Shown: positions 2,886 through 53,024, numbered from the stretch's first letter. The stretch: 63,855 nt of DNA from Candidatus Levyibacteriota bacterium (GCA_038205015.1 JBBRCK010000006.1:1-63855), one strand, 5' to 3'. The notes: generated by a model from the sequence alone, not told the origin. Made by a program: numbers and translations.

Positions 2886-3393
2886 CATAAAGTCTTAATT
2901 TATTTTTCTTATCTTCTTCTTTTAAGGGTAAATTAATTTCATAAACAAAACTTACAATTCTTGTTCCTTTTTTTAATTCTTTTTTAAACTTGGGAATTAA
3001 TTTTTCTAAGGTTTTAGGGACTAAATATACAAAAACAACATCTGCGTCTTTTAAATTCTCGTCAAAAAGATTTTTTCTTTTTACCTTTAAAAGGTTAGAT
3101 AAATTATTGATTTTGAAATTTATCTTTGAAATATAATATCTTGTTGGATCAATTTCTAACCCCACCCCTTTTGCACCAAAAACCTTGGCAGCAATTACCA
3201 AAGCTGTTCCGTCACCACATCCTAAATCATAAATTAAATCGTCTTTTTTAATTTTTGCCAGCTTACATATTGCCCTTGCTGTTTTACTATTCGTTCTCCA
3301 CCAAGGTGCCCACGGACTATCCGGGGGCCAAATCATTGACAACATAAAAAGTAAAAAAACAACAATAAATATAATAACTAAATTAAATATCAT
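2878..3393 (-). CDS. Small membrane-anchored class I SAM-dependent methyltransferase
   Basis: N-terminal TM, APWW, YDLGCGDG motif I, GLEID, VFVYL, GTRIVS. Confidence 0.85.
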   Translation of the reverse strand: MIFNLVIIFIVVFLLFMLSMIWPPDSPWAPWWRTNSKTARAICKLAKIKKDDLIYDLGCGDGTALVIAAKVFGAKGVGLEIDPTRYYISKINFKINNLSNLLKVKRKNLFDENLKDADVVFVYLVPKTLEKLIPKFKKELKKGTRIVSFVYEINLPLKEEDKKNKLRLYVI

Positions 3394-3686
3394 TTAAATT
3401 TATAAATTACCTTGCCTAATATCTGGCTTTTTAAAATATAACCAAATTTTCTACTGTCAAAACTATCATTTTTATTATCTCCCCTAACGAAATATTTTCC
3501 GTTACTAATTTTAAGTACCCTTTTTAAAAATATTTGTTTCTCAATCTCAAATGCCACTATATCATTTATTTTGGGGTTTTTAAATAAATATGGAATTCCA
3601 CTTACTAATACCGCTTCTCCATCAAGAATGTGGGGTAACATGCTATGCCCGGAAACCTTAAGACTTAAGAGAAGTTTGTTTGACAA
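3390..3686 (-). CDS. sodX: Nickel-SOD maturation protease (S26 family)
   Basis: VSGHSMLP catalytic Ser, FLKRV Lys, VRGDNKNDSFDSRKFG; directly downstream of sodN; TTG 3686 preferred over ATG 3734, which lies inside sodN. Confidence 0.85.
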   Translation of the reverse strand: MSNKLLLSLKVSGHSMLPHILDGEAVLVSGIPYLFKNPKINDIVAFEIEKQIFLKRVLKISNGKYFVRGDNKNDSFDSRKFGYILKSQILGKVIYKFK

Positions 3687-3690
3687 AGTA

Positions 3691-4122
3691 TTAAGAGGTT
3701 TTCTTTGTTTGTTGAAAAATGTCTGCAATTTCATCTACTGCCCTTACTAATTCCTCTGCTGCTTTTAGACTAACATCTTGTTTATTCTTGGAACAAAGTT
3801 TTGCAGCTTTCCAAAATGTGTCGTTTAAATTTGGGAATTTTTCCAGATGCTCCGGCTTAAAATAATCTGTCCAAAGAATTAATAATTCTTCTTTACATTT
3901 TCTGGCATGTTCTTCTTTGGTTAAGACGCAGCGGACGAATTTATTTCTGTCTTGTACTGAAGAATTATCCTTGGGTAATTCACCGATAAGCTGTATCATT
4001 TTAAGCACCGTTGCAGCAGCTATTTGTGCAGGTTTTGGATCGTAAATTCCACAAGGAACATCACAGTGGGCATAAGCTATTTTTTGAGGTATAAGTTTTA
4101 AAATAATTTTGGGTATTTTCAT
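3691..4122 (-). CDS. sodN: Nickel superoxide dismutase precursor
   Basis: Ni-hook HCDVPCGIYDP after an 18-aa leader; KEEHA, LWTDYFK, SKNKQ. Confidence 0.95.
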   Translation of the reverse strand: MKIPKIILKLIPQKIAYAHCDVPCGIYDPKPAQIAAATVLKMIQLIGELPKDNSSVQDRNKFVRCVLTKEEHARKCKEELLILWTDYFKPEHLEKFPNLNDTFWKAAKLCSKNKQDVSLKAAEELVRAVDEIADIFQQTKKTS

Positions 4123-11945: not shown

Positions 11946-12137
11946 CCCCTACCGATAAACAACACTAAGCACTGTTATTTTAATTTTTGGGCATCTTTTA
12001 GTCACAATCTGTTATCTGTAACAATATTTAGGGGTGACTTCTTCCTCCGTGAGGATATAAGTTTTCCTAACAATACATAGAACCCACTTTACCACAAAAA
12101 ATAAGATTAAATAAAAGATAATTACAATTTATCAAAA

Positions 12138-12440
12138 CTATTTATCCTTTGCTCTGTCTAACTTATCAAGCTTAAGGAGTTTTACTCCGTAATAAACTAC
12201 TATTGCTACTACCAAAAAATCTATTGCTACGCTTATAAAATCTCCCCACATTAGCTTTGCTGCCCCGGCCATAACATAAGCATTTTTTAAATTTAATCCT
12301 CCCATTAATAAACCAATTAAAGGATTTAATAAATCAGTAACTAATGCTGTTACCATTTTGGCAACGGCACCTCCTAGGATAAAACCAACAGCTAAGCCAA
12401 CTACTCCTTGTTCCTTTACAAAATCTATGAAACTTTTCAT
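12138..12440 (-). CDS. mscL: Large-conductance mechanosensitive channel
   Basis: FIDFVKEQGVVGLAVGFILGGAV...VTDLLNPLIG, WGDFISVAIDF; SD GGAGGTGA before ATG 12440. Confidence 0.9.
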   Translation of the reverse strand: MKSFIDFVKEQGVVGLAVGFILGGAVAKMVTALVTDLLNPLIGLLMGGLNLKNAYVMAGAAKLMWGDFISVAIDFLVVAIVVYYGVKLLKLDKLDRAKDK

Positions 12441-12495
12441 ATCTATCACCTCCTTCCCTATTAAAATAGTTACATATTGCTGTAATAAATGTCAA

Positions 12496-12554
12496 TTTTG
12501 AAGATAATTTGGCTCCAAGGAATTTACAACGTTAGAACCTATTTCATTGCTTAG
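12496..12554 (+). repeat. att-like scar S1 (tRNA-end copy with CCA + motif B)
   Basis: TTTTGAAGATAATTTGGCTCC...GTTAGAACCTAT; reads [18 protein letters not shown]. Confidence 0.65.
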
Positions 12555-13305
12555 GAGGTAAAGGTAAAAATACACTTGTTTGTTTTTTATATTTTTCAAA
12601 GTCTTGCCGTCCGGCGTATTTTTTTTCAAGAAGCGGCACACCAGAGACAAACAGAATTAAAATCGTAATCGTTATCGGTCCAATTATTGTAAACAGTCCA
12701 CTTGGAATAGCTAATGAAATAATAAATATTCCCCACCACATGGTTACTTCTCCAAAATAATTAGGGTGACGAGAATACTTCCAAAGACCCTCTTGCATTA
12801 CTTTCCCTTTATTTTCAGGCTTACTAATAAAATTAGATAATTGAGCATCTCCTGTGACTTCAAAATAAAAACCAACAAGCCAAACTGCGATCCCCAAAAT
12901 ACTAAGAATACTAAAACTTGACAGTTTAGAATTATTTATAAAAATAACAGGTATTGAAATTAAAAATAACATTAATCCCTGAAGCATAAATACCTGCAGA
13001 AAGCTACGAAAGTAAAAATTTTTCCATTCTTTTCGCCAAGCAAGATAACGTGAATCTTCCGGCTTACCCTTGTGTCTTTTATAAATATGCCACGCTAGAC
13101 GAACTCCCCAAATAGTAACAAGGATATTCACCAAGATGGAAAGAAGAGAAAATCCAGAAATTACAAATGAAATCCAAGCAAGAATTGGAAAACCCAATCC
13201 CCAGGCAATATCAGCAACATCATTTCTTTTTTTAATTATTGAGATAATAAACCAAAAAAACATATAAACAAATAAAATTGAGGCTAAGATGAGGTAAAAG
13301 TTCAT
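12544..13305 (-). CDS. DUF1295 membrane protein (steroid 5-alpha-reductase-like)
   Basis: [39 protein letters not shown]; ATG 13305 overlaps the upstream TGA (ATGA). Confidence 0.88.
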
Positions 13306-13706
13306 AGTCCCATTTTTGAAGCAATAAGATAAGCTATTGTAGAAACCGAAGCAGCCAAAATCGTTCCCCAAGCCATATCAACCAAAGATACTAAAAGAGG
13401 CCAATTTTTTAAGGTAGCAAGATTGGTCAAATCATAGGTAGCATATGTAAAAAATCCGAAAAGTGCACCAAAAACTAAAGCATAAACCCAAGAATGCTTT
13501 TCAACAGCCGGAGAAATAACAAATAATATAAGACCAACAATAAAAAGAAGATAAAAAGAAATTGCAGCTACCCAATTGACATTTGTCTTCATCAGTAAGC
13601 CTAGCTGCTCAGCGTAAAATTTTCTGGCAACTAAAGATAACCAAATCAAATCAATTGCGAAAAAGACTGGCAGGGTTATTGCATAAAGTTTTAAAAAGGA
13701 TTGCAT
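13302..13706 (-). CDS. DUF2177-family membrane protein
   Basis: [29 protein letters not shown]...VDMAWG; ATG 13706 follows TATAAT by 6 nt. Confidence 0.88.
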
Positions 13707-13731
13707 ATAACGATTATATGCAAATAAATTG

Positions 13732-14061
13732 CTAAATTCTACAATCACATCTCTTCTTATGCAAATTCTCTATTTGTTCCTTTATTGAATTAATTAATAT
13801 ATCTTGTTTTGCCAATCCGCGTGCTTGAGATTTAAGCAAGGGGCTTCTATGATTATATTTTCTTCTTTCCATTTCTTGCACTAAAAGCTCATGACGATTG
13901 TATAAAGCTTTTAGTTTTCCTTTCCAACGCAGTGTTTCGGGATGCTTGGAATACCCCTTTTTATCTTCGGTTATTACTACCCATAAAGCGTGTAACTCCC
14001 GATGCTCCCCTAATAAATGCTGTCTACAAAGAATAGATGGATGTAAATCCCAAATTCTCAT
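13732..14061 (-). CDS. Pyrimidine-dimer DNA glycosylase / T4 endonuclease V-like protein
   Basis: MRIW...LCRQHLLGEHRELH, HPETLRW, RHELLVQEMERRKYNH. Confidence 0.8.
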   Translation of the reverse strand: MRIWDLHPSILCRQHLLGEHRELHALWVVITEDKKGYSKHPETLRWKGKLKALYNRHELLVQEMERRKYNHRSPLLKSQARGLAKQDILINSIKEQIENLHKKRCDCRI

Positions 14062-14076
14062 TTTTAAATTATATCA

Positions 14077-14140
14077 TTTCGAGGCTATTTGGCTCCGCAG
14101 GATAATTATTTACCCTGAGAGTACCGAAAAGATATTATAA
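14077..14140 (+). repeat. att-like scar S2 (tRNA-end copy with CCA)
   Basis: TTTCGAGGCTATTTGGCTCCGC versus TTTTGAGGCTAATTTGCTCCGC at the tRNA end; reads FEAIWLRR... Confidence 0.65.
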
Positions 14141-14146
14141 TCTGGC

Positions 14147-14446
14147 TTAAATAGGACATGTATTTCTTCCGATTGCAGCATAAAATCCACACCATGAAAA
14201 CATTGCTTCAAACAAGGCAAATCCTGAAAAAAACAATAACATAAAATTGCTTGAAGAAAAACCAAGGATTAATAAAATTACTGAAATAGAAATTCTAAGT
14301 ATCTTGTCTGGTTTACCAATATTGGGATTTGCATTCTTTTTAAAATTCTTGGGGGCATATTTCTTTAATATAAATCTATAAGAAAAACCAAATATAAAAG
14401 CAGCAATATATGCAATTAAAAGTGTCTCCACAAGCTTATTATACAT
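14147..14446 (-). CDS. DUF2892 (YgaP-like) membrane protein
   Basis: NIGKPDKILR, EAMFSWCGFYAAIGRNTC. Confidence 0.8.
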   Translation of the reverse strand: MYNKLVETLLIAYIAAFIFGFSYRFILKKYAPKNFKKNANPNIGKPDKILRISISVILLILGFSSSNFMLLFFSGFALFEAMFSWCGFYAAIGRNTCPI

Positions 14447-14463
14447 GATGATTTTCGGAAAAC

Positions 14464-14498
14464 AATTTGCTTCGCGAGCCGAAGGGATGTTAAAACCT
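14464..14498 (+). repeat. att-like scar S3
   Basis: AATTTGCTTCGCGA-GCCGAAGGGATGTTAAAACCT; shares GCCGAAGGGATGTTA (15 bp) with S6. Confidence 0.7.
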
Positions 14499-14536
14499 AT
14501 TTTAAATATTGGCTAGAAGAACGAATGCAAGAAATA

Positions 14537-15721
14537 TTAATCCCCAAATGCATGAATAACCGGTTCCGGCCTAACGATTTTAAGTGAAATCAAAAAAGAT
14601 ATTATTGTTAGAACCGCTGCAACTATAAATGGCGAGGAAATAAGAATAGATGCCAAAAATCCTCCTGCAATCGGACCGATAATCTGCCCTATGCTCATAT
14701 AAGAAGAATTAAGACCCTGTACGGAACCCTGCGATTTTGCATCGGATTCCTGTGAAAGGATAGTCTGAATGAGTGGATTAATAAATGAATTTGTCAAAGC
14801 AAACAGCAATCCAAAAATTATGAATAACATAAAGCCCGTGAATAAATAAAGAGCCAGAAAAACAATTGAAAGTGCTAAAAATGAACGCGACAATAATTTT
14901 CTTACCCCAAAGCGCTTAGAAAGTCTTCCGATTAAAAATACCTGGGTCACTATTCCAATAAATCCTATTGCAGTAAAAAACAAAGATATCTGGGAAGGAG
15001 TAAAATGAAGAACCTTTATGGCATATGGCTGGAATGTTGTCACATACATTGAAAAAGTAATTGCGTAAACAAGGGAAATTGCAAGAACAAGACCAATATT
15101 CTGATCTTTTAGTGCAAGGAATAAGCTTTTGAAATCAAATAACTGTTTATTGTGAACTTGACCGATATTTTTATTCGTTTCAGGTAAGAGAAGCCATGTA
15201 AGAATGGTCGCTACAACGGAGATGATACCTGCAATAATAAAAGGGAGAGCCGGTGATATACCGTAAGTAAAAGCGGAGATTGCCGGACCGAAGAAAAAAC
15301 CGAAACCGAAAGAAGCTCCAATAACCCCAAATCCCTTTGCCCTATCTTTAGGCTCTGTTGAATCAGCTATTACAGCGGATGCTACCGGTAAATTTCCTGC
15401 AGTTGCTCCGTCAAGAGCTCTTGCTAAAAAAATAAATAAGGCACTCGGCGCAAAAGCCATCATAAAAAATGATAGTGCTGTTCCGGCGATAGACACCGTA
15501 AGAAGTGGTTTTCTACCGTATTTATCAGAAAGTCTTCCTATTAGAGGTGCCGATAAAAATTGGCATAATGAGAATAAGGCAAACAATAATCCATTTTGAA
15601 AAACTGAGAGGCCATATTTTAAAGAATAAGAATATAGTATAGGAATAATAATGCCGTAACCTAAAGCATTAACAACCGCAATTAGACCGATTATAAATAA
15701 TGTCCTATTATTTTTTAGCAT
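14537..15721 (-). CDS. MFS drug:H+ antiporter (DHA1/TetA-like)
   Basis: GRLSDKYGRKP motif A, ARALDG, GFFFGPAISA. Confidence 0.9.
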   Translation of the reverse strand: MLKNNRTLFIIGLIAVVNALGYGIIIPILYSYSLKYGLSVFQNGLLFALFSLCQFLSAPLIGRLSDKYGRKPLLTVSIAGTALSFFMMAFAPSALFIFLARALDGATAGNLPVASAVIADSTEPKDRAKGFGVIGASFGFGFFFGPAISAFTYGISPALPFIIAGIISVVATILTWLLLPETNKNIGQVHNKQLFDFKSLFLALKDQNIGLVLAISLVYAITFSMYVTTFQPYAIKVLHFTPSQISLFFTAIGFIGIVTQVFLIGRLSKRFGVRKLLSRSFLALSIVFLALYLFTGFMLFIIFGLLFALTNSFINPLIQTILSQESDAKSQGSVQGLNSSYMSIGQIIGPIAGGFLASILISSPFIVAAVLTIISFLISLKIVRPEPVIHAFGD

Positions 15722-15776
15722 GAATGTTTATTCTATAATAAAATAAAGTTAATTAAAATATAGAACACAAAATTAT

Positions 15777-15801
15777 GGGGCTAATTTGCTCTGTGGGTCG
15801 A
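15777..15801 (+). repeat. att-like scar S4 (tRNA-end copy only)
   Basis: GGCTAATTTGCTC identical (13 bp) to 20198-20210; then TGTGGGTCGA, similar to S6. Confidence 0.65.
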
Positions 15802-15839
15802 TCAAGAAACATTCGACATCATAGTTATATTATCCAGGC

Positions 15840-15900
15840 TTTGGCTCCAAGAGACGCAATATTCCTGAAAAGAATTGAAGGAGACGATGTTAGAATCTAT
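15840..15900 (+). repeat. att-like scar S5
   Basis: TTTGGCTCCAAG identical (12 bp) to S1; GACGATGTTAGAA at 15883-15895. Confidence 0.6.
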
Positions 15901-15907
15901 ATTGCTT

Positions 15908-16552
15908 TTAATCCCAGCTACAAACATAGCTTCCTTTTTTGATTTCTTGAAGTCCACTTGTTTCACTTTTTTCTCTTTTTCGCATTGATTCTTGCCCATA
16001 GAAATATTCAATTTCTTGCCTTATGCTATCTAATTGTCCATTATTCTCTAATTTCAAGATGACATCTTCTGCGGAAATTTTTTTAATTTTAGCTAATATT
16101 TCCTTTTTTTCTTTTTCTCCAACATCTTTAAAGCTACCAAGCATATATTGAAACAAAGCTATAATTCTAGGTAGATGATATTTATTAGTAAGTATACCCA
16201 TCGGGTTTTCTTGCTTCCAGAGTTTTTTTTCAGAAATGTAACTTATTATTGATTTTGCATTTCCACAGGTATTTCCAGGAACACAATAAAGTTTTTCAAT
16301 TGAATCTTTATCTACGTCGCTTGTAAAAAATGACTCCATTACGTCTGGCCTGAATTTTTTCCATTTTTCATTTTTCCCACCCACAATAACGATTTTCTTT
16401 GTTATCTTATCTTTAAGTAAAAGCTCTGCCGCTCTTATCCTAAATCCTTTATCGAGTGCTCCTGATTCATCTTCTAAAAGTAGTTTATATTTGCTATTTA
16501 ATTTAAAAAAATCGACTGATAAAAGAAAGACGATAGAATAATTAGATTTCAT
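15908..16552 (-). CDS. YdcF/DUF218-like protein
   Basis: IVIVGG, NTCGNA, ILTNKYHLPR match the DUF218 pattern. Confidence 0.6.
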   Translation of the reverse strand: MKSNYSIVFLLSVDFFKLNSKYKLLLEDESGALDKGFRIRAAELLLKDKITKKIVIVGGKNEKWKKFRPDVMESFFTSDVDKDSIEKLYCVPGNTCGNAKSIISYISEKKLWKQENPMGILTNKYHLPRIIALFQYMLGSFKDVGEKEKKEILAKIKKISAEDVILKLENNGQLDSIRQEIEYFYGQESMRKREKSETSGLQEIKKGSYVCSWD

Positions 16553-16570
16553 AAGAAGAAGTATATCAAA

Positions 16571-16619
16571 TTGAAGCTAATTTTGATCCGTGGGCCGAAG
16601 GGATGTTAGAACCTGCTTA
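16571..16619 (+). repeat. att-like scar S6
   Basis: TTGAAGCTAATTTTGATCCGTGG-GCCGAAGG-GATGTTAGAACCTGCTTA; last 18 bp identical to S8. Confidence 0.75.
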
Positions 16620-16651
16620 AGATTTACAAATTTTAATATATACTAAAATAT

Positions 16652-16945
16652 ATGCCCCATACGCTCAGGAGTAAAAAGGTAACTAAAAATAATAAACTTT
16701 TATATATCCTCGCATACTCTACTTCTGTAATTGGCCCATTCTTTGCTATTCCTCAAATATACGACATTATAATTAATAAAAACTCTCAAGGCATATCAAT
16801 TATAACCTGGGTGGGGTATTTGGGCGTTGCATTAATTTGGGCTTGGTATGGAATTGTTAAGAAAGATAAACTAATTATCTTTTGTAATGTATTGTGGGCA
16901 ATTTCTGAATTATTAGTTGTGACTACTGCTTTTATTTATAAATGA
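16652..16945 (+). CDS. SemiSWEET / PQ-loop family transporter
   Basis: FFAIPQIYDII...SQGISIITW, YGIVKKDKLIIFCN; three TMs. Confidence 0.8.
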   Translation: MPHTLRSKKVTKNNKLLYILAYSTSVIGPFFAIPQIYDIIINKNSQGISIITWVGYLGVALIWAWYGIVKKDKLIIFCNVLWAISELLVVTTAFIYK

Positions 16946-17099
16946 GCTCCCCAAGCCTAGACTCAATATACCCGAAAACAGACATAACTTTGATAATATT
17001 ATCCAAAGTTTCCAAAATCGAAGCTATATTGGGGAAATGAGACAAAGGTGGGAGGAAATTAAGAAATTGCAAGGAGAAACAAATATAATTTTAAACTAG
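16944..17099 (+). pseudogene. Headless coding fragment, probable recombinase C-terminal tail (scar S7)
   Basis: GAGCTCCCC resembles the tRNA-end motif, followed by an open frame ELPKPRLNIPENRHNF...YIGEMRQRWEEIKKLQ...* with no upstream start. Confidence 0.4.
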
Positions 17100-17107
17100 C
17101 ATTAGTG

Positions 17108-17452
17108 CTATTTGATTAAATCTAATAAAACCATAGCTTCATTATGTTCAGTATCTTTCGCGCCATACAAAAGAGTTATTTCTTTATAGTTTTTCTCTAA
17201 CTCTTTTAACTGGCTGAGTAACTCGTTTTTATCTTTCAATTCTTTTTTGTATCTTTTTTTAAATTCTTCCCATTTCTTTGGGTCATGACCAAACCATTTT
17301 CGTAATTCCGTACTTGGAGCAATTTCTCTCAGCCACAAATCTAAGCGTGCTTCCTCTTTTGATACACCTCTTGGCCAAAGCCTGTCAACAAGTATCCTAA
17401 ATCCGTCACTTTTTTCCTGTTCTTCGTAAATTCGTTTTATTTGGATCTTCAT
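17108..17452 (-). CDS. DUF488 (YeaO-like) protein
   Basis: IKRIYE...[18 protein letters not shown]...[22 protein letters not shown]. Confidence 0.9.
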
Positions 17453-17456
17453 AGAA

Positions 17457-18173
17457 CTAATATCCAGTATATTCTTCTGTTCTTATATTATCTTCGTTTA
17501 CATTTGCCTCTGTTAATATTTGCCTCATAGTTTTAACCATGCCTGCAGGACCAGAAAGATAGTAAATCGGGGTAGTTAAATCAGAGATATGCTTCTTAAG
17601 CATGTCCTTAGTAACATGTCCTGTTTCGCCTTTCCATTCCTGCGGTGTTAATCTAGTCATAACCGGAATAAAAGTGAAGTTCGGATTTCCTTTTGCGAAT
17701 GACTCCAAATCACTCAAGAACGCTGCATCTTTTTGTGTCTTGTTAGAATAGAAAAGGGTTATTTTATGCGGGAGCTTATCATGTGTTGCTTGAGCGATAA
17801 TGCTTCTTACGGTAGTAATACCGATACCGCCCGTTAAGAATACAGCGGGAATCTTTTCAGTCTTATGAAGTATAAAATCACCATATGGAGCGTCTAATTT
17901 TACTTCAGATCCAAGAGGCAAGTCCTTCAATACTCTTTTGAAGGCAGTGTCTCGCATGCGGGTTGCACTCATTAAGTCCTTTTCAAAGGGCGCTGACGCA
18001 AAAGAAAAGCCACGAATATCTCCCTCCTCATCTGTTTCTGATGGGTTCAAGAGTGTATAATCGGCAAACTGTCCTGCCCTAAAAGTAAACTCTTCAGGTT
18101 TCTCAAAATAAAAAGCCATCGTTTCATTGGCAATTTCTTCTTTTTTTAATAATTTTACGGTGTAAATCGGCAT
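17457..18173 (-). CDS. FAD/NAD(P)-binding oxidoreductase (ferredoxin-NADP reductase-like)
   Basis: [32 protein letters not shown]; ATG 18173 lies just after the regulator stop. Confidence 0.88.
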
Positions 18174-18177
18174 AGTT

Positions 18178-18483
18178 TTACTCCCAATGCTTGCATCCAT
18201 CAATACAATAAGCTCCGACGTGTTTTCTTATCAAGTTAAATAACGGTTGTATCGTCTCACTGTTTATTGCATAGATTCGCTCTTTACCGTCTCTCTCTAC
18301 CTCAACAAAGTGACAAAGCAGAAGCCGTTTCATGTCATGGGACACAGCAGATTGTTCAATCTCTAGCTTATCAGAAATAGATGATACACTTTGTTTTCCT
18401 TCTCTGTTTAAAAATTGCAGAATCTTCACCCGTTGCTTACTCCCAAGCACTGTGAAGAAGTCATCAAATGAATTATATATCAT
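18178..18483 (-). CDS. ArsR/SmtB-family transcriptional regulator
   Basis: RVKILQFL, SVSSISDKLEIEQSAVSHDMKRL, RDGKERIYAI. Confidence 0.85.
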   Translation of the reverse strand: MIYNSFDDFFTVLGSKQRVKILQFLNREGKQSVSSISDKLEIEQSAVSHDMKRLLLCHFVEVERDGKERIYAINSETIQPLFNLIRKHVGAYCIDGCKHWE

Positions 18484-18518
18484 ATGAATATGATATCATA
18501 TATTAATACCTGTGTCAA
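18477..18518 (-). promoter_or_regulatory. Promoter and probable autoregulatory operator of the ArsR-FNR-DUF488 operon
   Basis: TTGACA-17-TATCAT-6-ATG; inverted repeat ATATCATAT-GA-ATATGATAT (18477-18496) and palindrome ATATGATATCATAT (18488-18501). Confidence 0.65.
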
Positions 18519-18572
18519 GTTTTCCCGATAAATAATCTGTTGATATTATAATAAGAGGCCTTAGGCATCTCC

Positions 18573-18619
18573 CTTTTGAACCTAGCTCCGTGGGGATGGA
18601 CGATGTTAGAACCTGCTTA
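18573..18619 (+). repeat. att-like scar S8
   Basis: CTTTTGA...GCTCCGTGG...GACGATGTTAGAACCTG; 17 bp identical to S9. Confidence 0.75.
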
Positions 18620-18638
18620 TCTCAGGAAAAATCAACTT

Positions 18639-18878
18639 TTAAAACAGTCTAGCAACAAAAAGTACAACTAGAGAACCTGCAATTGCCACTATAAATGATG
18701 TCATATTGAAACCTGTTACTCCAACATTAAAAAACATTTCTCCTAAATAACCACCTACCACTGCTCCAACAATGCCTAGAATAATTGACCCTATAATTCC
18801 TCCTCTGGAGCTAGGTGCAATAAAATTGGCAATACTACCTGCAATTAATCCAAAAATTATCCAATAAAGAATACTCAT
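18639..18878 (-). CDS. GlsB/YeaQ/YmgE-family membrane protein
   Basis: WIIFGLIAGSIA...IILGIVGAVVGG...SFIVAIAGS; SD GAGGTG. Confidence 0.9.
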   Translation of the reverse strand: MSILYWIIFGLIAGSIANFIAPSSRGGIIGSIILGIVGAVVGGYLGEMFFNVGVTGFNMTSFIVAIAGSLVVLFVARLF

Positions 18879-18923
18879 ATTTCTTCACCTCACTTCTTGT
18901 CACAATAATCAATCTAAAGAAAA

Positions 18924-19319
18924 CTAATCAGATTTTCTTTCGCCCGACAATATTTTAAGCAACATTACAATTCCCCAAGCAATAACAGTATATGCAATTA
19001 ATGCTACTATGGTTGATGGCTCTAATACTGCAGTTGTTTCTACGCCTTGCGTATAACCTTGATGAAATATTCCCTGAAAAGGGAGAATAAAAATTCCAGT
19101 CAAACCGTAGATTAATCCGACAAATGCACTTCCTGGATTAGCACCTGTTAACTTCAGTATTAAACGAGAAACTAGAAGAATATCTAAAAGTCCAAACATA
19201 AAATAGATCAAGTATTGAATAGTTTGGTAACTAGATGCTTGTCTTTTGGTTTCAGTAGTTACAGACTCTTTCGGACCATCACTCTGAGTAGTTACAGACT
19301 CTTTTACAATTTCAGCCAT
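18924..19319 (-). CDS. YggT-like membrane protein
   Basis: RLILKLTGANPGSAFV...IYGLT..FILPFQGIF, LEPSTIVALIAY; SD GGGGGTGA. Confidence 0.7.
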   Translation of the reverse strand: MAEIVKESVTTQSDGPKESVTTETKRQASSYQTIQYLIYFMFGLLDILLVSRLILKLTGANPGSAFVGLIYGLTGIFILPFQGIFHQGYTQGVETTAVLEPSTIVALIAYTVIAWGIVMLLKILSGERKSD

Positions 19320-19403
19320 AATTTTTCACCCCCTTTATTTTTATAATTTAATAAATTTAGCTCTTATCGCAATATCCTAAGGAAAAAATTTGACTTAATT
19401 AAA

Positions 19404-19613
19404 TTAAAGTTTAACTTCAGGCTTTTTAATTATTGTTTCTTTAGGTAGGAAGTTAATTAAAGCTTTTTCAACCAGAGTGGTTAAGCTTATTCCCTCAACT
19501 ACAGCTTGAGCTCTTGTTTGCTTAACTAAATCAGGATTAAGGAAAAGTGTAGTTCGTTGTTTTATATTAGTTGTTATACTACATATAGTAGTACTAGTTG
19601 TAACAGTTATCAA
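19404..19613 (-). CDS. Small ribbon-helix-helix-like DNA-binding protein (start uncertain)
   Basis: QRTTLFLNPDLVKQTRAQAVVEGISLTTLVEKAL fits a beta-alpha-alpha pattern. Confidence 0.55.
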   Translation of the reverse strand: MITVTTSTTICSITTNIKQRTTLFLNPDLVKQTRAQAVVEGISLTTLVEKALINFLPKETIIKKPEVKL

Positions 19614-19623
19614 TGACCAATAA

Positions 19624-19715
19624 CTTTTGAGGCTAATTTGCTCCGCGAGATAGTCCTGCTGACGCTGGATTCGCTTCGGCTCGACGATGTTAGAACCTGT
19701 TTTATATTATTGTAA
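19624..19715 (+). repeat. att-like scar S9 (tRNA-proximal)
   Basis: CTTTTGAGGCTAATTTGCTCCGCGA (19624-19648) is a perfect 25-bp copy of 20191-20215; motif B at 19683-19699; reads LLRE...LDDVRTCFILL*. Confidence 0.85.
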
Positions 19716-20169
19716 ACTTGATCTTGGGGTGCCCAGTTAGTTCGTCTACTACATCAATATATAGGTCAGGATATTTAGCCCTATATTCCCGTATTTTTTG
19801 TATTTCTTCTTTAACATCCTGTTCATATCCTGAAAACGAAATACTATTTATGTTGATTGCTATCTCTTCATACTCCTTTTGTAATTTATCTACATGCCCC
19901 TTAAGATTTGCTGGAGTACTTGAAAATCCTAATCCATGAGTTATATCTTTTGCCAAACCTCTTCCGAATGTTCGTTCATATTCAATAAATAAGTCTTTAT
20001 GGAATGATTGAGGTCCTAATGGCCATTCAGATTTTACTATTTGGCCTGTTGAAGTTCTAAACAATTGTCCTTCTAAATAGACTAAAGGTGGATGTCCCTT
20101 CGGATTAAATAATTCAGAAGATGGGTGCTCTACGACATTAGTTTTTAATAGTTCTTTCCCATCATCCAT
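19702..20169 (-). CDS. Hypothetical protein (first cassette cargo)
   Basis: 155-aa ORF between the tRNA end and S9; TGATATAAT-6-ATG. Confidence 0.6.
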   Translation of the reverse strand: MDDGKELLKTNVVEHPSSELFNPKGHPPLVYLEGQLFRTSTGQIVKSEWPLGPQSFHKDLFIEYERTFGRGLAKDITHGLGFSSTPANLKGHVDKLQKEYEEIAININSISFSGYEQDVKEEIQKIREYRAKYPDLYIDVVDELTGHPKIKFTII

Positions 20170-20207
20170 AAAATTATTATATCAGATGTGCTTTTGAGGC
20201 TAATTTG

Positions 20208-20279
20208 CTCCGCGACTAGGACTCGAACCTAGAACCTTGTCGTTAACAGCGACCTGCTCTACCATTGAGCTATCACGGA
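20208..20279 (-). tRNA. tRNA-Asn (GTT), CCA not encoded
   Basis: TCCGTGA...TCGCGGA-G acceptor stem, GGTCG-CTGTTAA-CGAC anticodon arm, GGTTCGAGTCC T-arm. Confidence 0.95.
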
Positions 20280-42597: not shown

Positions 42598-43950
42598 ATG
42601 GAAGAGACAAAAGACCTTTGGAAAAACATATTAGCCGAAGTAGAACTAGAGGTATCTAGAGCTAACTACTTAACTCTATTTAAAAGAACGCAGCTTGTTT
42701 CTATAGAAGAAGACGTCCTAACGGTTGCCGCATCTTCCTCGATGATTATTGATCTTTTGCAAAGAAGGTTTTATGAAATCATTAAAAAATCTGCTGACAA
42801 ACTCTTGGGAAAAAGCGTAAGAATTGTATTTATCCCTAAAACTATTGTGGATAGTTTCGAAAAGCAGGATGAAAAAGCCGGCCCGCTTTTTGAATCGGAA
42901 AACAAACCAACGCCCCAACACCTACAAAGAGTAAGACCGGACTACACTTTTGAAAACATGGCGGTTTCTTCCAGTAATCAACTGGCCTTTGTTAGCGCCT
43001 CAACCGTTGCCAGCAAACCAGGAGTTGCATACAATCCTTTGTTTATTTATGGCCCAACCGGCGTTGGAAAGACTCATTTAATGCAGGCAATTGCCAATGA
43101 GGTTTTTGCTAAAAGCCCGGATAAAAAAATTCTCTATACCACCAGCGAAGAGTTTACCAACGAAGTCGTTGAGGCGATTAGAACTAATAACACCTCTTCG
43201 ATGAAGAAGAAGTTTAGAAATATCGATTTACTTATTATTGACGACATTCAGTTTATTGCCGGAAAAGAAAGAGTACAAGAAGAACTTTTTCACACTTTCA
43301 ACATCCTTGTTGACAACGCGTGCCAGATTGTCTTGTCATCTGATAGGCCACCGGCTGAAATAAAGCAAGTTGAAAAAAGGCTGCTTTCCCGTTTTTCAGG
43401 AGGATTAACTGTTGACGTTCAATCGCCCGACTTTGAACTCAGAACGGCAATTCTTTTAATTAAATCCAAAAAATATGGCATTGGCTTAACAATAGATGTT
43501 GCAAAACTAATTGCTCAAAAAGAACAAGATGCCAGGGGACTGGAAGGATTACTTTTGCGAATTATTACCCAGGCCCAAGGAAAAGGTGGGGAAATAACTG
43601 AAGAATTAGTATCTTCTGTTTTATCTTTAAATAAAGAGGAAAAGTTAAACAGCTTTCATCCGGACGAGTTAATAAAAAATGTCTGCAACTATTATAGCGT
43701 TAAAGAAACACAGCTTAAAAGTCCAAAGAGAGACGCTTTTTTGGTAAGACCAAGGCAAGTGGCAATGTTTCTTCTTAAAAAAGAGCTTAATTTAACCTTT
43801 GTAGAAATTGGCAACTTATTAGGAGGAAGGGACCATACAACAATTATGCATGGAGTGGAAAAGGTTGATAACATGTTGAAAAACTCTTTAATTTCGGAGG
43901 ATATCTTGGGGATTCCAAAACTTAATGTTGATAAAAATGTTAATAACTAA
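42598..43950 (+). CDS. dnaA: Chromosomal replication initiator DnaA
   Basis: YNPLFIYGPTGVGKTHL, IDDIQF, QEELFHTFN, RLLSRF, GGRDHTTIMH. Confidence 0.98.
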   Translation: MEETKDLWKNILAEVELEVSRANYLTLFKRTQLVSIEEDVLTVAASSSMIIDLLQRRFYEIIKKSADKLLGKSVRIVFIPKTIVDSFEKQDEKAGPLFESENKPTPQHLQRVRPDYTFENMAVSSSNQLAFVSASTVASKPGVAYNPLFIYGPTGVGKTHLMQAIANEVFAKSPDKKILYTTSEEFTNEVVEAIRTNNTSSMKKKFRNIDLLIIDDIQFIAGKERVQEELFHTFNILVDNACQIVLSSDRPPAEIKQVEKRLLSRFSGGLTVDVQSPDFELRTAILLIKSKKYGIGLTIDVAKLIAQKEQDARGLEGLLLRIITQAQGKGGEITEELVSSVLSLNKEEKLNSFHPDELIKNVCNYYSVKETQLKSPKRDAFLVRPRQVAMFLLKKELNLTFVEIGNLLGGRDHTTIMHGVEKVDNMLKNSLISEDILGIPKLNVDKNVNN

Positions 43951-44074
43951 CAAATTATGGTTATAAACAATTTTTCCACTTTTTTATCAACAACTTATCC
44001 ACTTTTATTTAGCCTTGCTCTGTTGCTTTTTTCCACTTTTCCATATAAACTACTACAACTACAAATAGATTAAC
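43926..44074. other. Probable oriC: DnaA-box cluster, DnaA-trios and AT-rich unwinding region
   Basis: TGTTGATAA 43926, TGTTAATAA 43938, TTATAAACA 43961, TTTTCCACT 43972, TTATCAACA 43984, TTATCCACT 43995, TTTTCCACT 44029; CTA-CTA-CAA-CTA-CAA-ATA 44050-44067. Confidence 0.8.
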
Positions 44075-45181
44075 ATGAAAGTTTCTTTTCTTTCCAATAA
44101 CCTTTCAGACAAAATTTCTTTTTTAAACCACGCTGTGTCAAGTAGGGGACAGCTTCCCATCCTGTCTAATTTCTTATTAGAAGCAAAGAAAGGAAAGCTT
44201 AGTATAAGCGCAACGGATTTAGAAATTGGAATAACCACCAGTATTGCCGTAAATGTTGAGAAAGAAGGAAGGACAACGGTTCCTGCTAAAAACTTTTCAG
44301 ATTTATTACTTAACTTAGGAAATCAAAAAGTGACAATATCACAAGATGGAGAAACACTTAAGTTGGTTGGAGAAAAGACAAAAGCCTCTTTTCAAACAAT
44401 GTCTTCTGATGAATTTCCAAAACTATATGAAGAAAAAGGAGAAGAGTTCATAGAAATAAAAAAGAAAGACATAGAAAAGTTTTTACTAAGAGTGGTTTTC
44501 TCATCAGCAATTGATTCTTCCAGACCGGCTCTTTCCGGAATACTTTTAGACAAAGAAAAAAACGAAGCTGTAATGGTTGCAACAGATGGATACAGGCTTT
44601 CTCTTCAGAAAAACGTTTTCAAGACAACAGAGAAGCTTGAGAAGCCCATTGTAATCCCCGCCAGAATTTTTAAAGAACTGTTGTCAATTAAAGAAGACGA
44701 AGAAAATATAAAAGTGTTTGTCTCTGAAAAAAATAACCAGATTTTGTTTAGCCAAGGAGAAACTGTTTTAGTTGGTAGATTAATAGATTCTGAATACCCG
44801 GAATATGCAAAGATAATACCGGAGAGCTTTGCAATAAAAACAGAGTTTAACAGAGAAGAACTTTTAAGCGCAATTAAAATCTGTTCAATTTTTGCCAGAG
44901 AAACAGCAAATATAGTTAAGCTTTACATTGAAAAGAACAAAATTATTGTTTCAGCGAATTCGCCATCAGTTGGGGAAGATTCGGTAGAAGTTGAGGCAAA
45001 AACAACCGGAGGAGAAAACGAGATTGCTTTTAATGCAAAGTACCTTTTAGATATATTGTCATTTTTAAATAAGGACGAAATAGTTTTTGAAATGAACGGC
45101 CCTTTAAATCCCGGAGTGTTTAAAATTAAAGAGGACAACTCATTTCTCCACTTAATAATGCCAATTAGGGTGCAGGAATAG
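44075..45181 (+). CDS. dnaN: DNA polymerase III beta sliding clamp
   Basis: PILSNFLL, ATDLE, VATDGYRL, GRLIDSEYPEY, IAFNAKYLLD, HLIMP. Confidence 0.97.
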   Translation: MKVSFLSNNLSDKISFLNHAVSSRGQLPILSNFLLEAKKGKLSISATDLEIGITTSIAVNVEKEGRTTVPAKNFSDLLLNLGNQKVTISQDGETLKLVGEKTKASFQTMSSDEFPKLYEEKGEEFIEIKKKDIEKFLLRVVFSSAIDSSRPALSGILLDKEKNEAVMVATDGYRLSLQKNVFKTTEKLEKPIVIPARIFKELLSIKEDEENIKVFVSEKNNQILFSQGETVLVGRLIDSEYPEYAKIIPESFAIKTEFNREELLSAIKICSIFARETANIVKLYIEKNKIIVSANSPSVGEDSVEVEAKTTGGENEIAFNAKYLLDILSFLNKDEIVFEMNGPLNPGVFKIKEDNSFLHLIMPIRVQE

Positions 45182-46898: not shown

Positions 46899-48812
46899 TT
46901 AATCAAGAGTTATCTCAGGCTTATTTGTCGTTTCGGGCGTTGGATCAGGAAGATCGATTGGTTTTACTTGGGCAGCATCGATTCTTTCCCTTTCTTCTTT
47001 TTCCGCTTCTTCTTTAGCCTCTGTTTCTGCTTTTTTTAACTCCTCTTTCTCTTCCGGATTGGAGGTAATCATCTTGTGTTCAAATGGAGCAGCGATTATT
47101 TGCATTGCCACATGGCTTTGTCCTGCAAAAAACAAACCCTCACCCGGATTTGCAGACAAGAGTAATTGCTTCTCTCCTGCTGTAAGGTAAAAAAGCTCAG
47201 CCACTAAATCAATTTCGGTTGGACTTTGTTTTAAAAGCATCTGGATTGAGGAATTTGATAAAATTGCTTTTCCATAATCGGTTGAGAGAAAATCTTGAAC
47301 ATCTTGAGTGGCCGTTGTTAGGGCAAGATAATATTTTCTCGCTCTTTTGGCTACGCTGTAAACAAAGGACGCTGAATCTTCATATTTCATCATTACCCAT
47401 GCCTCGTCAAGGATTAACACTCTCTTTTTGAGAGTTTTCCTAACCTTAGTCCAAATAAAGTCTAAAATTACGTGCATTGCAATCGGCCTAATTTCCTCTT
47501 CCAAAGCTTTAATGTTGAAAACAGTAAAAGGATTTTTAATGTCAAAATTAGATTGCTGGTTAAAAATACCATTTAAACTTCCCTTAATAAATCTTTCAAG
47601 GCCTAAGGCCAAATCTTTGGCTACCTTATCTTCCATGCCCAGCAACACTTTATATAAATCTTCCATTAATGGCGGAGTATTTTTTTGAGTTTGTGGATCC
47701 TGCGTAATTCCTTTTTGCCTATAGGTTTCAACTAAAGCTCTATCTAAAATGGCATCATGTTCGGGATCTAGTTTTCCTAAAACAATTTTTAAAAGACCGT
47801 GTAATGATAGGATTTTTAATCCAAGCTCATTTTCTCCCGCTTCGTATACCTCCGAAAGATCAAAAGGGTTAATTTTTATCGGAGAGTTTGAAGAAAAAGT
47901 TACCTCTTCTCCCCCCATAGCTTTAGTCATTTCCGAATATTCTCCTTCAGGGTCGATGATTATAACTTCAGCCCCAAACATAAACTGCCTCATTGCCTCA
48001 AGTTTGATTAAATAAGATTTTCCAGCTCCTGATTTTCCAAAAACAACCTCGTTGGCATTTTCCAAAGAAAACCTGTCAAAGATAATTAAAGATCCGTTTT
48101 GCTGGTTAATTCCATACATCAGACCCTTGTCTTGCGCAAGCATGGCGGATGTAAAAGGAAAAGTTGATGCTAAAGACGTAGTGTCCATATTTCTGGTAAT
48201 AAATAATTTATCCTGACCTAGAGGAATGGTCGTTTTAAATCCAGCTTCCATTTGTAGCGCCGCAGGTCTTGGGTCAACCAGGATTGAGTTGAGCGTGGTT
48301 TTTAATCTTTTTGCAGCCTCATTTAAATCCTCAATTTTTTCGGAAAATAGAGTAGCGTAAAGACTAAATTGAAAAAAACGCTCCATACCTTTTGCTAATT
48401 CTTCTTGAACAGCTAGCGCATCTTCCAGCGAAGCGCTTACCTTTGGGTCTACGTCTAAGCCCTCATCCTCAGATGACATAATAGTTGCTTCCATTTCCGA
48501 AATTTTTCTTCTTAAATCAGACAATACGTCGGCAGAAGATGTGGGATAGATAAACATTGACACATTCATAGAATGGTCAAACTCAACCAATGGTTCAAGC
48601 CAATTGGGAGAAACGAATCTTGGGTAGCCACTAATAAATACTGTTTTGTAAAATTTACCACCGACCTTAACATGATTAAAATCAATCTCGATTTCTGCCG
48701 GTGCAATCAGATCTGGAACCGAAAAGGCAGCTTCTTGCTTTACTTCTATTTCTTTTTCAACAGGTATTTGTTTATTCTCGATGTTACCGGTAATTTTTTT
48801 CTTACCAAACAT
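46899..48812 (-). CDS. VirB4/TraE-like type IV secretion ATPase
   Basis: FPFTS, IIFDRFSLENAN, GKSGAGKS, IIIDPEGEY, LILDEAW, KRARKY, ATQ. Confidence 0.9.
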   Translation of the reverse strand: MFGKKKITGNIENKQIPVEKEIEVKQEAAFSVPDLIAPAEIEIDFNHVKVGGKFYKTVFISGYPRFVSPNWLEPLVEFDHSMNVSMFIYPTSSADVLSDLRRKISEMEATIMSSEDEGLDVDPKVSASLEDALAVQEELAKGMERFFQFSLYATLFSEKIEDLNEAAKRLKTTLNSILVDPRPAALQMEAGFKTTIPLGQDKLFITRNMDTTSLASTFPFTSAMLAQDKGLMYGINQQNGSLIIFDRFSLENANEVVFGKSGAGKSYLIKLEAMRQFMFGAEVIIIDPEGEYSEMTKAMGGEEVTFSSNSPIKINPFDLSEVYEAGENELGLKILSLHGLLKIVLGKLDPEHDAILDRALVETYRQKGITQDPQTQKNTPPLMEDLYKVLLGMEDKVAKDLALGLERFIKGSLNGIFNQQSNFDIKNPFTVFNIKALEEEIRPIAMHVILDFIWTKVRKTLKKRVLILDEAWVMMKYEDSASFVYSVAKRARKYYLALTTATQDVQDFLSTDYGKAILSNSSIQMLLKQSPTEIDLVAELFYLTAGEKQLLLSANPGEGLFFAGQSHVAMQIIAAPFEHKMITSNPEEKEELKKAETEAKEEAEKEERERIDAAQVKPIDLPDPTPETTNKPEITLD

Positions 48813-49480: not shown

Positions 49481-49482
49481 AA

Positions 49483-50712: not shown

Positions 50713-50851
50713 ATACAAAAAGCATATAACGTGAAAAATCTGCTTTCAAGATTATCAAACTATGTCAAATAATATTAAAAAAGGAAATTTCCGTGAAAAA
50801 TCTTTTAGCTAAATTCCGCAAGCTCTGCAGCGTTTTGGGAGGCATAATGGA

Positions 50852-51163
50852 TTAACAGGTTTTGAAAGAAAGTGGGTGCGAGGCGTTGAGGCATCCAACC
50901 CCGGTTATACCGGCGATAAGATTTATTATAAAAAATGAAAGAAACATTAAAAATAGTCCAAGGACTGCGAGAGCAATTGTTTTTCTTGCCTGGTCAAGTT
51001 TTTTAGCATCTCCTCCGGAAATTAAAAACCTTATTCCACCAATAATTATAAAGATAACCCCCACAGAACCCGCTAAAAGCAGCGCCCAATAGATTAAGTT
51101 TGTGATTAATATTGGGATGCAACCGATTGTTGCGACTCCGTTTTTTCCACAAGACCAGTTCAT
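50852..51163 (-). CDS. TrbC/VirB2-like pilin (minimal)
   Basis: GGIRFLISGGDAKKLDQARKTIALAVLGL two-TM hairpin. Confidence 0.8.
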   Translation of the reverse strand: MNWSCGKNGVATIGCIPILITNLIYWALLLAGSVGVIFIIIGGIRFLISGGDAKKLDQARKTIALAVLGLFLMFLSFFIINLIAGITGVGCLNASHPLSFKTC

Positions 51164-53021: not shown

Positions 53022-53024
53022 ATA

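Follow-up and report, generated by a model that had tools for sequence, protein, structure and literature searches.

Scars beside a tRNA-Asn gene of a Levyibacteriota bacterium probably derive from attachment sites embedded in the ends of large serine recombinase genes

Introduction

How does a row of short scars, each resembling in part the 3′ end of a tRNA gene, come to separate small accessory genes on one side of a single tRNA gene, and what kind of enzyme would have left them there? The question is raised by a stretch of 63,855 nucleotides from a Candidatus Levyibacteriota bacterium (GCA_038205015.1 JBBRCK010000006.1:1-63855), referred to here at its whole length as the window, which has a GC content of about 33% and belongs to a Patescibacteria chromosome. 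In it, an accessory-gene island of ~8 kb, from ~12040 to 20279, lies on the downstream side of the gene for tRNA-Asn. An original prediction, made from the sequence alone, had read the scars in antisense to the tRNA as the C-terminal tail of a recombinase, probably a serine recombinase, and had supposed that their attachment (att) site was once embedded in the end of an integrase gene; the array slightly exceeds the coordinates then given (12496-19715).

The answer that we hold with considerable, though not full, confidence is that the region is an integration hot-spot built by large serine recombinases (LSRs) downstream of tRNA-Asn, that the attP site of these elements lies within the end of the LSR gene, where it mimics the tRNA, and that the scars are attR sites.

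The scars match the 3′ end of LSR genes

In the sense of the tRNA, a scar consists of a motif B (cAGGTTCTAACATCgtC), a variable stretch, and a motif A, formed by a copy of the acceptor stem (CGCGGAGC(C)) and the sequence AAATTAGCCTCAAAAG; in antisense, the acceptor-stem copy reads ..LLR[DEG] and is accompanied by GAYGATGTTAGAACC, which reads DDVRT. Synteny around rpoD assigns the window to Candidatus Levybacteria, and the comparison set consisted of 80 syntenic Levybacteria loci with an RpoD identity of 85–96% and the order dnaG-rpoD-tRNA-Asn. In other Levybacteria a non-tRNA core of 29 nt (AGGTTCTAAC[AG]TC[GC]TC[CT]A[CT]CC..CGGAGC) occurs in about 20 places downstream of tRNA-Asn, examples being L004, L009, L016, L019, L045, L057 (three times), L059, L062, L064, L072 and L078 (four times). 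The commonest form of scar, of 29 nt (GCTCCGAGGGATAGACGACGTTAGAACCT) and found in 14 of the 15 scars aligned from related loci, reads LRGIDDVRT, with the spacing of the LSR tail LRGIDKVRT (P0128).

When the C-terminal 187 residues of the LSR of locus L005 were used as a query in a protein search, two kinds of homolog were recovered. Those of the first kind end like integrated genes (..NPxLLRD, ..LLRGQDSNLQP), and those of the second run on past LLR as G-x-D-[DE]-V-R-T followed by 15–35 further residues, as in ..NPILLRGLDEVRTRIMSNLQDFYVPTFQKLK (then a stop), ..VVLRGIDKVRTWIMSTKEDFEIPVL.., ..ILRSIVDDVRTYFMGIKEYFEVPVL.. and ..LLGDVDDVRTYGYKASRVAALIFAHFKKEFG... The consensus of this un-integrated tail is ..NPxLLRG-x-D[DE]VRT-WIMxNLEDFxIPSF and a stop. 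Homologs that do not lie beside a tRNA read ..NPILLRGLDEVRTRIMSNLQDFYVPTF.., ..VVLRGIDKVRTWIM.. and ..ILRGIVDDVRTYFM.., and the DNA at the tail of one such gene (L082, on a contig without tRNA-Asn) is GCTCCGCGGACTGGACGAAGTTCGAACC, that is, the scar in antisense. A metagenome scan with the tail alignment gave 57 loci, 35 of which carry LSRs in the attP form (33 unique sequences), most of them full-length (580–630 aa) and with no tRNA nearby, and with the pattern ..FEP-24 aa-[DN][DEK]VRT-WIM..; one of these (L097) contains the Resolvase, Recombinase and Zn_ribbon_recom domains (PF00239, PF07508 and PF13408). In other relatives, integrated at tRNA-Arg, Ser, Trp, Thr, His and Tyr, the tRNA antisense comes straight after ..NPxx, and when free and integrated proteins are aligned they are colinear up to LLR and diverge after it.

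To judge from these alignments, the scar sequence is the native 3′ end of an LSR gene. The predicted origin of the att site in an integrase 3′ end thus agrees with what is found, as does the guess that the enzyme was a serine recombinase: both tail forms exist, families whose DVRT-like tail adjoins tRNA antisense are abundant, and motifs A and B are contiguous at the 3′ end of intact, tRNA-free homologs, with a spacing identical to that of the 29-nt scar. The part of the prediction that needs correction is that DVRT would be the C-terminus: the tails contain it, but the recombinase runs on for about 15–35 conserved codons beyond it. A different frame for motif B, TMLEP instead of DDVRT, had been prompted by the M-F-E-P that stands ~19 codons before the tRNA in integrated LSRs; it was ruled out, because the attP-form LSRs hold both FEP, at a second copy of TTCGAACC, and DDVRT 29 codons later.

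The AlphaFold model of the C-terminal part of an LSR (P0131, from a 6-sequence alignment) has a mean pLDDT of 47.6 and is uninformative as to the tail, and a scan of viral contigs with the L045 LSR found no relatives. The homologs of both LSR families treated here (P0001-P0174) are mostly C-terminal stumps of 100–300 aa, many on long contigs and labelled ‘hypothetical protein’; it seems that decay of recombinase genes next to a tRNA gene is very common in Patescibacteria.

A site held as DNA within a protein-coding end

In the sense of the LSR, the free form has the order ..AAAAATCCCAT.. (the P′ arm), a 7-nt copy of the acceptor stem, a 5-nt copy of the T-stem, 5 extra bases (CGAAG, CGATG or CAAAG) and TTCGAACC; the integrated form is the free form minus those 5 bases, as is seen when L094 (TGCGGCCTCGTGGACGACGTTCGAACC) is set against L101 (TGCAGGGAATGGGAC-TCGAACC). 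Counted from the FEP codons, the T-loop motif begins after 89 nt in the free forms (23 unique) and after 84 nt in the integrated ones (11 unique); in the window, the motif is 19 nt from the acceptor in scar S1, 20 nt in S3, S6 and S8, and 14 nt in the tRNA. In serine integrases the motif of the zinc-ribbon domain (ZD) lies 5 bp nearer the centre in attB, which is ~10 bp shorter than attP (PMC3783163), and the offset between 89 and 84 nt corresponds to this 5-bp shift.

Codon usage across 33 unique free-form genes separates what is conserved as DNA from what is conserved as protein. The V of VRT is GTT in 32/32 (background 0.33), the R is CGA in 30/33 (background 0.069) and the T is ACC in 27/33, whereas neighbouring conserved residues vary synonymously, with four codons for the P of alignment column 43 and several for F and I. 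The binomial p-values, which go down to 1e-31, overstate independence, the sequences being related, and it is the contrast between columns that carries the argument. That the V-R-T codons are frozen means that motif B, for which conservation at the nucleotide level was a point raised by the original prediction, is held as DNA, as a mimic of the T-loop and not merely as codons; the tail past VRT, which keeps its residues despite synonymous change, is held as protein, so that the open reading frame (ORF) beyond the att site is real.

The 3′ region of the LSR genes (L005, L045, L055, L088-L144) contains three direct T-loop-like motifs that are frozen synonymously. GSN is encoded as GGTTCGAAC (GGT TCG AAC) in 43/48 unique sequences (TCG background 6%); FEP, encoded as TTCGAACCT (TTC GAA CCT), lies 105 nt past GSN, and VRT (GTT CGA ACC) ~88 nt past FEP. 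Only VRT is within the att site, GSN and FEP being outside the 50-bp site, and no dyad-symmetric partner of the T-loop motif was found by eye in the P′ arm.

LSRs and scars at tRNA-Asn in related genomes

In L005, L045, L055, L057, L012, L015, L048 and L066, an LSR lies directly beside tRNA-Asn and reads into it. These enzymes form four sub-families, with 22–59% identity to that of L045 (Resolvase PF00239 and Recombinase PF07508), and their ORFs end in tRNA antisense, as ..WTNNTGMLRD, ..FYSQNLSLLRDQDSNLEP, ..DNQLWLRD and ..PIWLPREDSNLEP, each followed by a stop, in the frame of motif A (the FEANLLRD/E of the original prediction). The inserts that bear them are small, that of L045 being about 7 kb long and containing the LSR, an HTH_36 protein, DUF5659, an XRE regulator, a PIN protein and an Imm5-like protein.

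The ends of these inserts are informative as to the origin of the scars. At the unoccupied tRNA-Asn of L018, L052, L073 and L049, a terminator hairpin comes next; a hairpin of this native type also follows the most distal scars of L045 and L004, and internal scars in related loci are followed by TTAGCCTCAAAA and a new gene. The insert of L045 thus has the tRNA and LSR tail on one side and, on the other, motif B, the variable stretch, the acceptor copy and the native terminator, and L004 is arranged likewise. These ends fit hybrid attL and attR sites flanking an insert, the hairpin after the distal scar being what is expected of an attR if the original tRNA end was displaced.

Other arrangements were seen at the same tRNA. 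At L072:13138-13223, LSR tail codons amounting to 58 nt stand between tRNA-Asn and a scar, to which they are directly fused; the locus looks as if a whole element had been deleted between the copy of the FEP motif and the attR copy of the T-loop motif. At L045:9545-18481, tRNA-Asn is inverted relative to rpoD with the LSR element between them, an arrangement that may be an inversion between att sites. Downstream of rpoD in L012, L015 and L066, the tRNA-Asn gene is split by a group I intron in its anticodon loop (Rfam RF00028, 67 bits, E 1e-16, at L012:13446-13632), and because of this interruption ARAGORN reports no tRNA-Asn in these three loci.

The scars of the window

The tRNA-Asn(GTT) gene of the window (20207-20279, minus strand; ARAGORN, sequence, and synteny in the 80 Levybacteria loci) is the chromosomal target, on the attB side, with dnaG and rpoD just upstream of it; its T-arm and acceptor stem would be the left half of the current attL. 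Directly after it stands the 16-nt flank AAATTAGCCTCAAAAG (20191-20206, minus strand), which on the plus strand reads FEANL in the LSR frame. The same flank is found in S9, with divergence straight after it, and is absent from unoccupied tRNA-Asn sites, where the terminator hairpin is found; it is therefore best regarded as a putative right arm of attL, P′-like and derived from the element. In all, 25 nt at 19624-19648 (motif A of S9) are identical to 20191-20215, the tRNA-Asn 3′ end with its flank, a match that chance would not be expected to produce.

Motif B (GAYGATGTTAGAACC or close to it) stands on the plus strand at 12528, 14486, 15886, 16602, 18602 and 19686, with a weak copy at 14131; three of the copies are the exact 14-mer. 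It is translated as NVRT in S1, DVKT in S3, DDVRI in S5, DVRT in S6 and DDVRT in S8 and S9. The six DDVRT-like copies with a nearby stop that had been described are all there, the stop coming 4–17 codons past the motif, and these nearby stops differ from the native LSR stop. The spacing, measured from the G of GCTCC to the G of GTTAGAACC, is 19 nt and in frame in S1, and 49 nt and in frame in S9, through a 30-nt insert (LLRE, 10 codons and DDVRT); it is 20 nt in S3, S6 and S8, which amounts to a +1 frameshift, and 42 nt in S2 and 45 nt in S5, both with long inserts. The earlier readings of S1, S2 (FEAIWLRR) and S9 are all present on the plus strand, and the frameshifts ascribed to S3, S5, S6 and S8 correspond to these spacings. 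As for the W codon, said to be the antisense of the tRNA CCA, TGG does represent CCA in S1, S2 and S5, although the resident tRNA-Asn gene itself encodes no CCA.

From the tRNA outward, all on the minus strand, S9 (19624-19702) has B as AGGTTCTAACATCGTC, the 30-nt in-frame insert, the acceptor copy and the 16-nt flank, so that its plus strand reads FEANLLREIVLLTLDSLRLDDVRTCFILL and a stop (FEANLLRE..DDVRTCFILL). S8 (18577-18618; AGGTTCTAACATCGTCCATCCCCACGGAGC) is near the commonest attP-like form, with a spacing of 20 instead of 19. S6 (16570-16618) has the exact B motif, the spacing of 20 and the flank AAAATTAGCTTCAA; S5 (15836-15902), a variant of B (AGATTCTAACATCGTC), the 45-nt spacing and an acceptor copy with CCA; and S3 (14455-14502), another variant of B (AGGTTTTAACATCC) with a spacing of 20. 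S2 (14076-14146) combines a good A part with a badly decayed B at a spacing of 42, and S1 (12496-12546), with its spacing of 19 nt, reads WLQGIYNVRT in frame, in the register of LSR tails such as LRGIDKVRT. Three degenerate scars can be added to the set. S4 (15772-15800) is an A part only, of acceptor-like sequence and AAATTAGCCCC. S0 (~12041-12085; GGGTTCTATG..CCTCACGGAGG), after MscL, is the most distal and most degenerate, a weak case recognized by eye. The uncertain S7 (16946-16975), picked out by eye, is a degenerate fragment like a tRNA 3′ end that lacks the 5-nt insert, and may represent a different or older kind of event. The SemiSWEET gene (PF03083; 16652-16975), the sole plus-strand gene of the island, ends exactly at S7.

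A sister LSR at tRNA-Ser

At the other end of the window, the 3′ stump of an LSR of a sister family (63469-63855, minus strand), cut by the window end and in the integrated form, lies across its target, tRNA-Ser(GGA) (63517-63606, plus strand; ARAGORN). This ORF reads ..DFTKSENWRRGRDSNPR.. through the tRNA in antisense, its W being the antisense of CCA, so that the entry of an integrase-like ORF into tRNA-Ser in the same register (SENWRRG), as originally described, is indeed present. Its homologs carry PF07508/PF13408, and among the 114 that have the GSNF motif, 65 show the integrated form (..NWRRGRDSNP..) and 20 the free form, with ends such as ..ENWRCFLDEVRTFFDENPEN and ..NWRCFLDEVRTFFDENPEN, each followed by a stop, and ..NWRCFLDEVRTFF... 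The stump itself has two T-loop-like copies, RFEL and GSNF (63715-63740 and 63820-63845).

The island and its cargo

The island contains 15 small accessory genes (12138-20169, by ORF calls and Pfam), all on the minus strand except SemiSWEET, with at least 10 scars dividing them into about 8 modules. Ten of the 15 genes have Pfam hits and the other five none. The modules comprise an unknown 155-aa protein (no Pfam hit); a ribbon-helix-helix (RHH)-like protein, an unknown 131-aa protein and a GlsB/YmgE-like protein (no Pfam hits, the RHH-like and GlsB/YmgE-like labels being our own reading of the sequence); ArsR (HTH_5), an FNR-like reductase (NAD_binding_1), DUF488 and SemiSWEET; an unknown 214-aa protein (no Pfam hit); MFS and, separately, YgaP-TM; Pyr_excise, DUF2177 and DUF1295; and MscL. 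No recombinase was found among the 15 genes by ORF calls, Pfam, or tblastn for LSR, and tblastn detected no LSR or LSR remnant in the modules. Single TTGACA/TATAAT-like sites after some scars are the only indication that modules have their own promoter, a promoter/terminator scan of the island showing no enrichment over shuffles (43 vs 34 +/- 5).

Counterparts of this cargo at the same site are almost entirely lacking in the 80 related genomes; the island is hypervariable, as an insertion model predicts. The contigs of four metagenome-assembled genomes (L002, L061, L071 and L075) stop at or within a few bases of tRNA-Asn, and it is in this way that an insertion site varying between strains would be expected to break an assembly. 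Exact-protein look-ups with three other genes of the window gave no match, and RpoD matched only the same contig in one Logan run.

Elsewhere in the window, a cluster like a type IV secretion system (T4SS) at 46899-54536, with a VirB4/TraG-like ATPase, a PrgI-family protein and three T4SS-pilin-domain proteins, adjoins dnaA/dnaN (42598-45181), and Sod_Ni (nickel superoxide dismutase) lies with an adjacent S26-type maturation peptidase at 3390-4122.

A possible mechanism, and what weighs against it

If the hypothesis of an attP within the recombinase gene is accepted, an intact, un-integrated element would carry an attP of ~50 bp inside the last 20–35 codons of its LSR gene, which, read on the LSR-sense strand, would mimic in antisense the target tRNA gene at its 3′ end. 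The order would be the P′ arm (..N-P-x-L), the 7-nt copy of the acceptor stem (L-R-G), the copy of the T-stem with its 5 bases (x-D-D/E) and the T-loop motif GTTCGAACC (V-R-T), after which the ORF would continue as W-I-M-x-N-L-E-D-F-x-I-P-S-F. In the real tRNA the same T-loop motif stands 5 bp closer to the acceptor end, which is the attP/attB geometry of the serine integrases, and it would presumably be bound by the zinc-ribbon domain. Both this geometry and the point at which free and integrated forms diverge suggest a crossover in the last few bases (3–5 nt) of the acceptor strand. The crossover would rebuild the tRNA from the P′ arm of the element, leaving the LSR ORF to end in tRNA antisense (..LLRD and a stop), with its last ~20–35 residues replaced by a few tRNA-antisense codons, and the detached P arm, with the DDVRT codons, would move to the far end of the insert, where, joined to the displaced acceptor end and its flank, it would form attR, that is, the scar. 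Repeated insertion at the rebuilt tRNA end would have pushed older inserts outward, from S9 to S0 in a presumed order of insertion, and the scars would have decayed to varying degrees through spacer insertions and +1 shifts. The modules of the window would be LSR-less cargo, consisting of a promoter, 1–4 genes and an att site, mobilized in trans by an LSR whose gene lies elsewhere. Six modules agree over the first 16 nt past the acceptor and differ beyond them, which favors such a movement. It would be the simplest account of LSR-less modules, and is also the weakest part of the explanation.

Several observations weigh against this account. The usual spacing of 19 nt is found in S1 only, with 20 nt in S3, S6 and S8 and inserts of 23–30 nt in S2, S5 and S9, and most scars of the window are probably not active sites now. 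The flank AAATTAGCCTCAAAAG is only loosely like the P′ arm of known LSR tails, and a TTAGCC motif in the right arm of the modules lies 7–12 nt from the acceptor, varying between genomes. Apart from the stump at tRNA-Ser, neither the array nor the rest of the 64-kb window holds an LSR. The terminal-overlap test found no circular-looking contig among the attP-form loci, and the assembled contigs of one sediment metagenome showed no informative joints as to excision or circular junctions. Finally, attP and attL are not a pair that a classical serine integrase recombines; repeated insertion at an occupied tRNA therefore implies either that the rules of directionality differ here, or that attL or the right arm of the modules still gives a usable target.

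Alternative explanations

The alternative that survives best accepts the same origin in an LSR, and supposes that the modules are what is left of complete LSR elements whose recombinase gene, perhaps with further sequence, was later deleted, the scars being inert fossils. We regard this as a real possibility, though on balance a less probable one. Decay of LSRs beside tRNAs is very common, most of the homologs in databases being C-terminal stumps of 100–300 aa on long contigs; in L072 just 58 nt of LSR tail are retained, fused to a scar; many scars of the window have a non-standard spacing; and integration, which truncates the LSR, may disable it, as in the archaeal ‘suicidal’ integrases (PMC7253208). 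Against this, six modules have the same boundary 16 nt past the acceptor, followed by a promoter-like region and a gene facing away from the tRNA, and the LSR codons past those 16 nt survive in no module; some modules are of only 0.4–0.7 kb, and eight independent clean deletions to the same base would be unlikely.

It is far less probable, indeed hardly to be expected, that the scars are ordinary, decayed copies of the 3′ end of tRNA-Asn which classical tyrosine-integrase islands left behind, and that the FEANLLRE and DDVRT frames are coincidental. Tandem partial-tRNA scars are typical of tRNA-linked islands such as tycheposons (bioRxiv 10.1101/2020.12.28.424599), motif A and the first 8 nt of B are also present within tRNA-Asn itself, and short open frames are not rare in AT-rich DNA. 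However, plain duplicates would not account for a conserved non-tRNA core (TAAC[AG]TC[GC]TC) and a spacing of +5/+6 nt in many genomes, nor for a scar sequence that is the coding 3′ end of intact LSRs; in the relatives, tRNA-Asn is flanked by LSRs and not by tyrosine integrases, and the tail past VRT, which keeps its residues through synonymous change, already contradicts this explanation.

That the scars are attC hairpin sites of an integron-type tyrosine integrase is scarcely credible, for all the small co-oriented cassettes of one to four genes and the repeats of ~50–80 bp with loosely inverted ends (GGTTCTAAC ... TTAGCCTC), since 8 sites, folded as single strands in both orientations, score no better than shuffled sequences (z -0.6 to +1.6), no IntI-like gene occurs in the window or by the tRNA in relatives, and an LSR attP accounts for the repeats. 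With this folding result and the lack of a tyrosine integrase, the identity of the scars as attC was ruled out: Pfam found no tyrosine recombinase in nearly all ORFs of the window of at least 110 aa, a search that left out three ORFs at 60151-63460, and the IntI position upstream of tRNA-Asn is taken by rpoD and dnaG.

Implications

If attP does lie within the LSR gene, the LSR system would explain the hypervariable accessory island of this streamlined genome of the candidate phyla radiation (CPR), and probably many others, the more so as there are sister LSR families at tRNA-Ser, Arg, Trp, Thr, His and Tyr genes. Serine integrases whose attP, in their own coding sequence, mimics the target tRNA would allow attP and attB to be read straight from a genome, which is rare for this class of enzyme and would be useful for mining pairs of integrases and att sites. 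The combination of T-loop and acceptor suggests how the choice of target is encoded, and the dozens of sequences would amount to natural evidence for the model in which attP and attB are discriminated by the 5-bp shift of the zinc-ribbon motif. Self-truncation on integration may also explain many of the ‘hypothetical protein’ stumps beside tRNA genes in Patescibacteria. A literature search for tRNA-mimic attP sites in CPR serine recombinases found no description, its coverage being incomplete and the novelty accordingly provisional.

More speculatively, and as an idea that we advance only tentatively, the CPR would possess a gene-capture platform, integron-like but based on a serine recombinase, in which LSR-less tRNA-mimic modules are inserted in trans, repeatedly, at the 3′ end of a tRNA. 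The universal T-loop would serve as distal motif, the target would be read from the 7-nt acceptor copy, the exchange of the tail would provide a built-in switch or lock of directionality that needs no recombination directionality factor (RDF), and GSN and FEP would be accessory or alternative sites. If this were true, the T-loop and 7-nt acceptor logic would explain how the family switches among Asn, Ser, Arg, Trp, Thr, His and Tyr genes.

Comparison with known systems

The closest framework is that of the attachment sites of LSRs such as phiC31, Bxb1 and the A118/LI integrase, in the model of Rutherford et al. 2013 (PMC3783163). The elements described here share with them the Resolvase, Recombinase and zinc-ribbon domains, sites of ~40–50 bp in which the distal motif of attP would lie 5 bp further out, hybrid attL and attR products, and an attP next to the integrase gene. 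They differ in that attP is inside the LSR ORF; in that a tRNA gene provides attB at its 3′ end, with the universal T-loop sequence as the shared distal motif; in that attP copies the acceptor stem of the target, with an identity much longer than the usual 2 bp; in the arrays at one site, which a classical attL disallows; and in that no RDF is known here.

With integron cassette arrays there is in common the small and mostly co-oriented cargo unit, each with its recombination site, at one fixed chromosomal point; here, in contrast, IntI and a folded attC are both lacking, each unit seems to have a promoter of its own, and the anchor is a tRNA gene. Tycheposons, the tRNA-linked islands of Prochlorococcus, which have tyrosine recombinases in 910/937 cases (bioRxiv 10.1101/2020.12.28.424599), likewise occur in streamlined genomes in which flexible genes are confined to islands by a few tRNA genes, with new inserts that push the old ones outward, partial-tRNA scars, and fragmented integrases scattered in the islands. 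The tandem inserts with partial-tRNA scars at the tRNA-Asn of the window, and the LSR stumps of its relatives, recall them; their scars, however, are plain partial tRNAs, and the modules of the window are much smaller and without integrase or replication genes of their own.

In mycobacteriophage BPs and its relatives, where immunity depends on integration, attP is also within a coding sequence (PMC4557955), and integration changes the encoded C-terminus, so that a different protein is made in the free and in the integrated state; there, a tyrosine integrase acts and it is the repressor gene that is affected. That the exchange of the LSR tail has a regulatory role is no more than a hypothesis.

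The SSV-type ‘suicidal’ tyrosine integrases of archaeal viruses and plasmids (PMC7253208; review PMC8371274) have a recombination site in their own ORF which matches a tRNA gene, integration alters the gene, and integrated copies tend to decay. They are tyrosine recombinases, and their gene is split into two halves, whereas here a serine recombinase would lose just its last ~20–35 residues and receive a few tRNA-antisense codons instead. The likeness is thus one of function and not of membership, and self-truncation on integration would make these enzymes the serine-recombinase counterpart of the archaeal ‘suicidal’ integrases.

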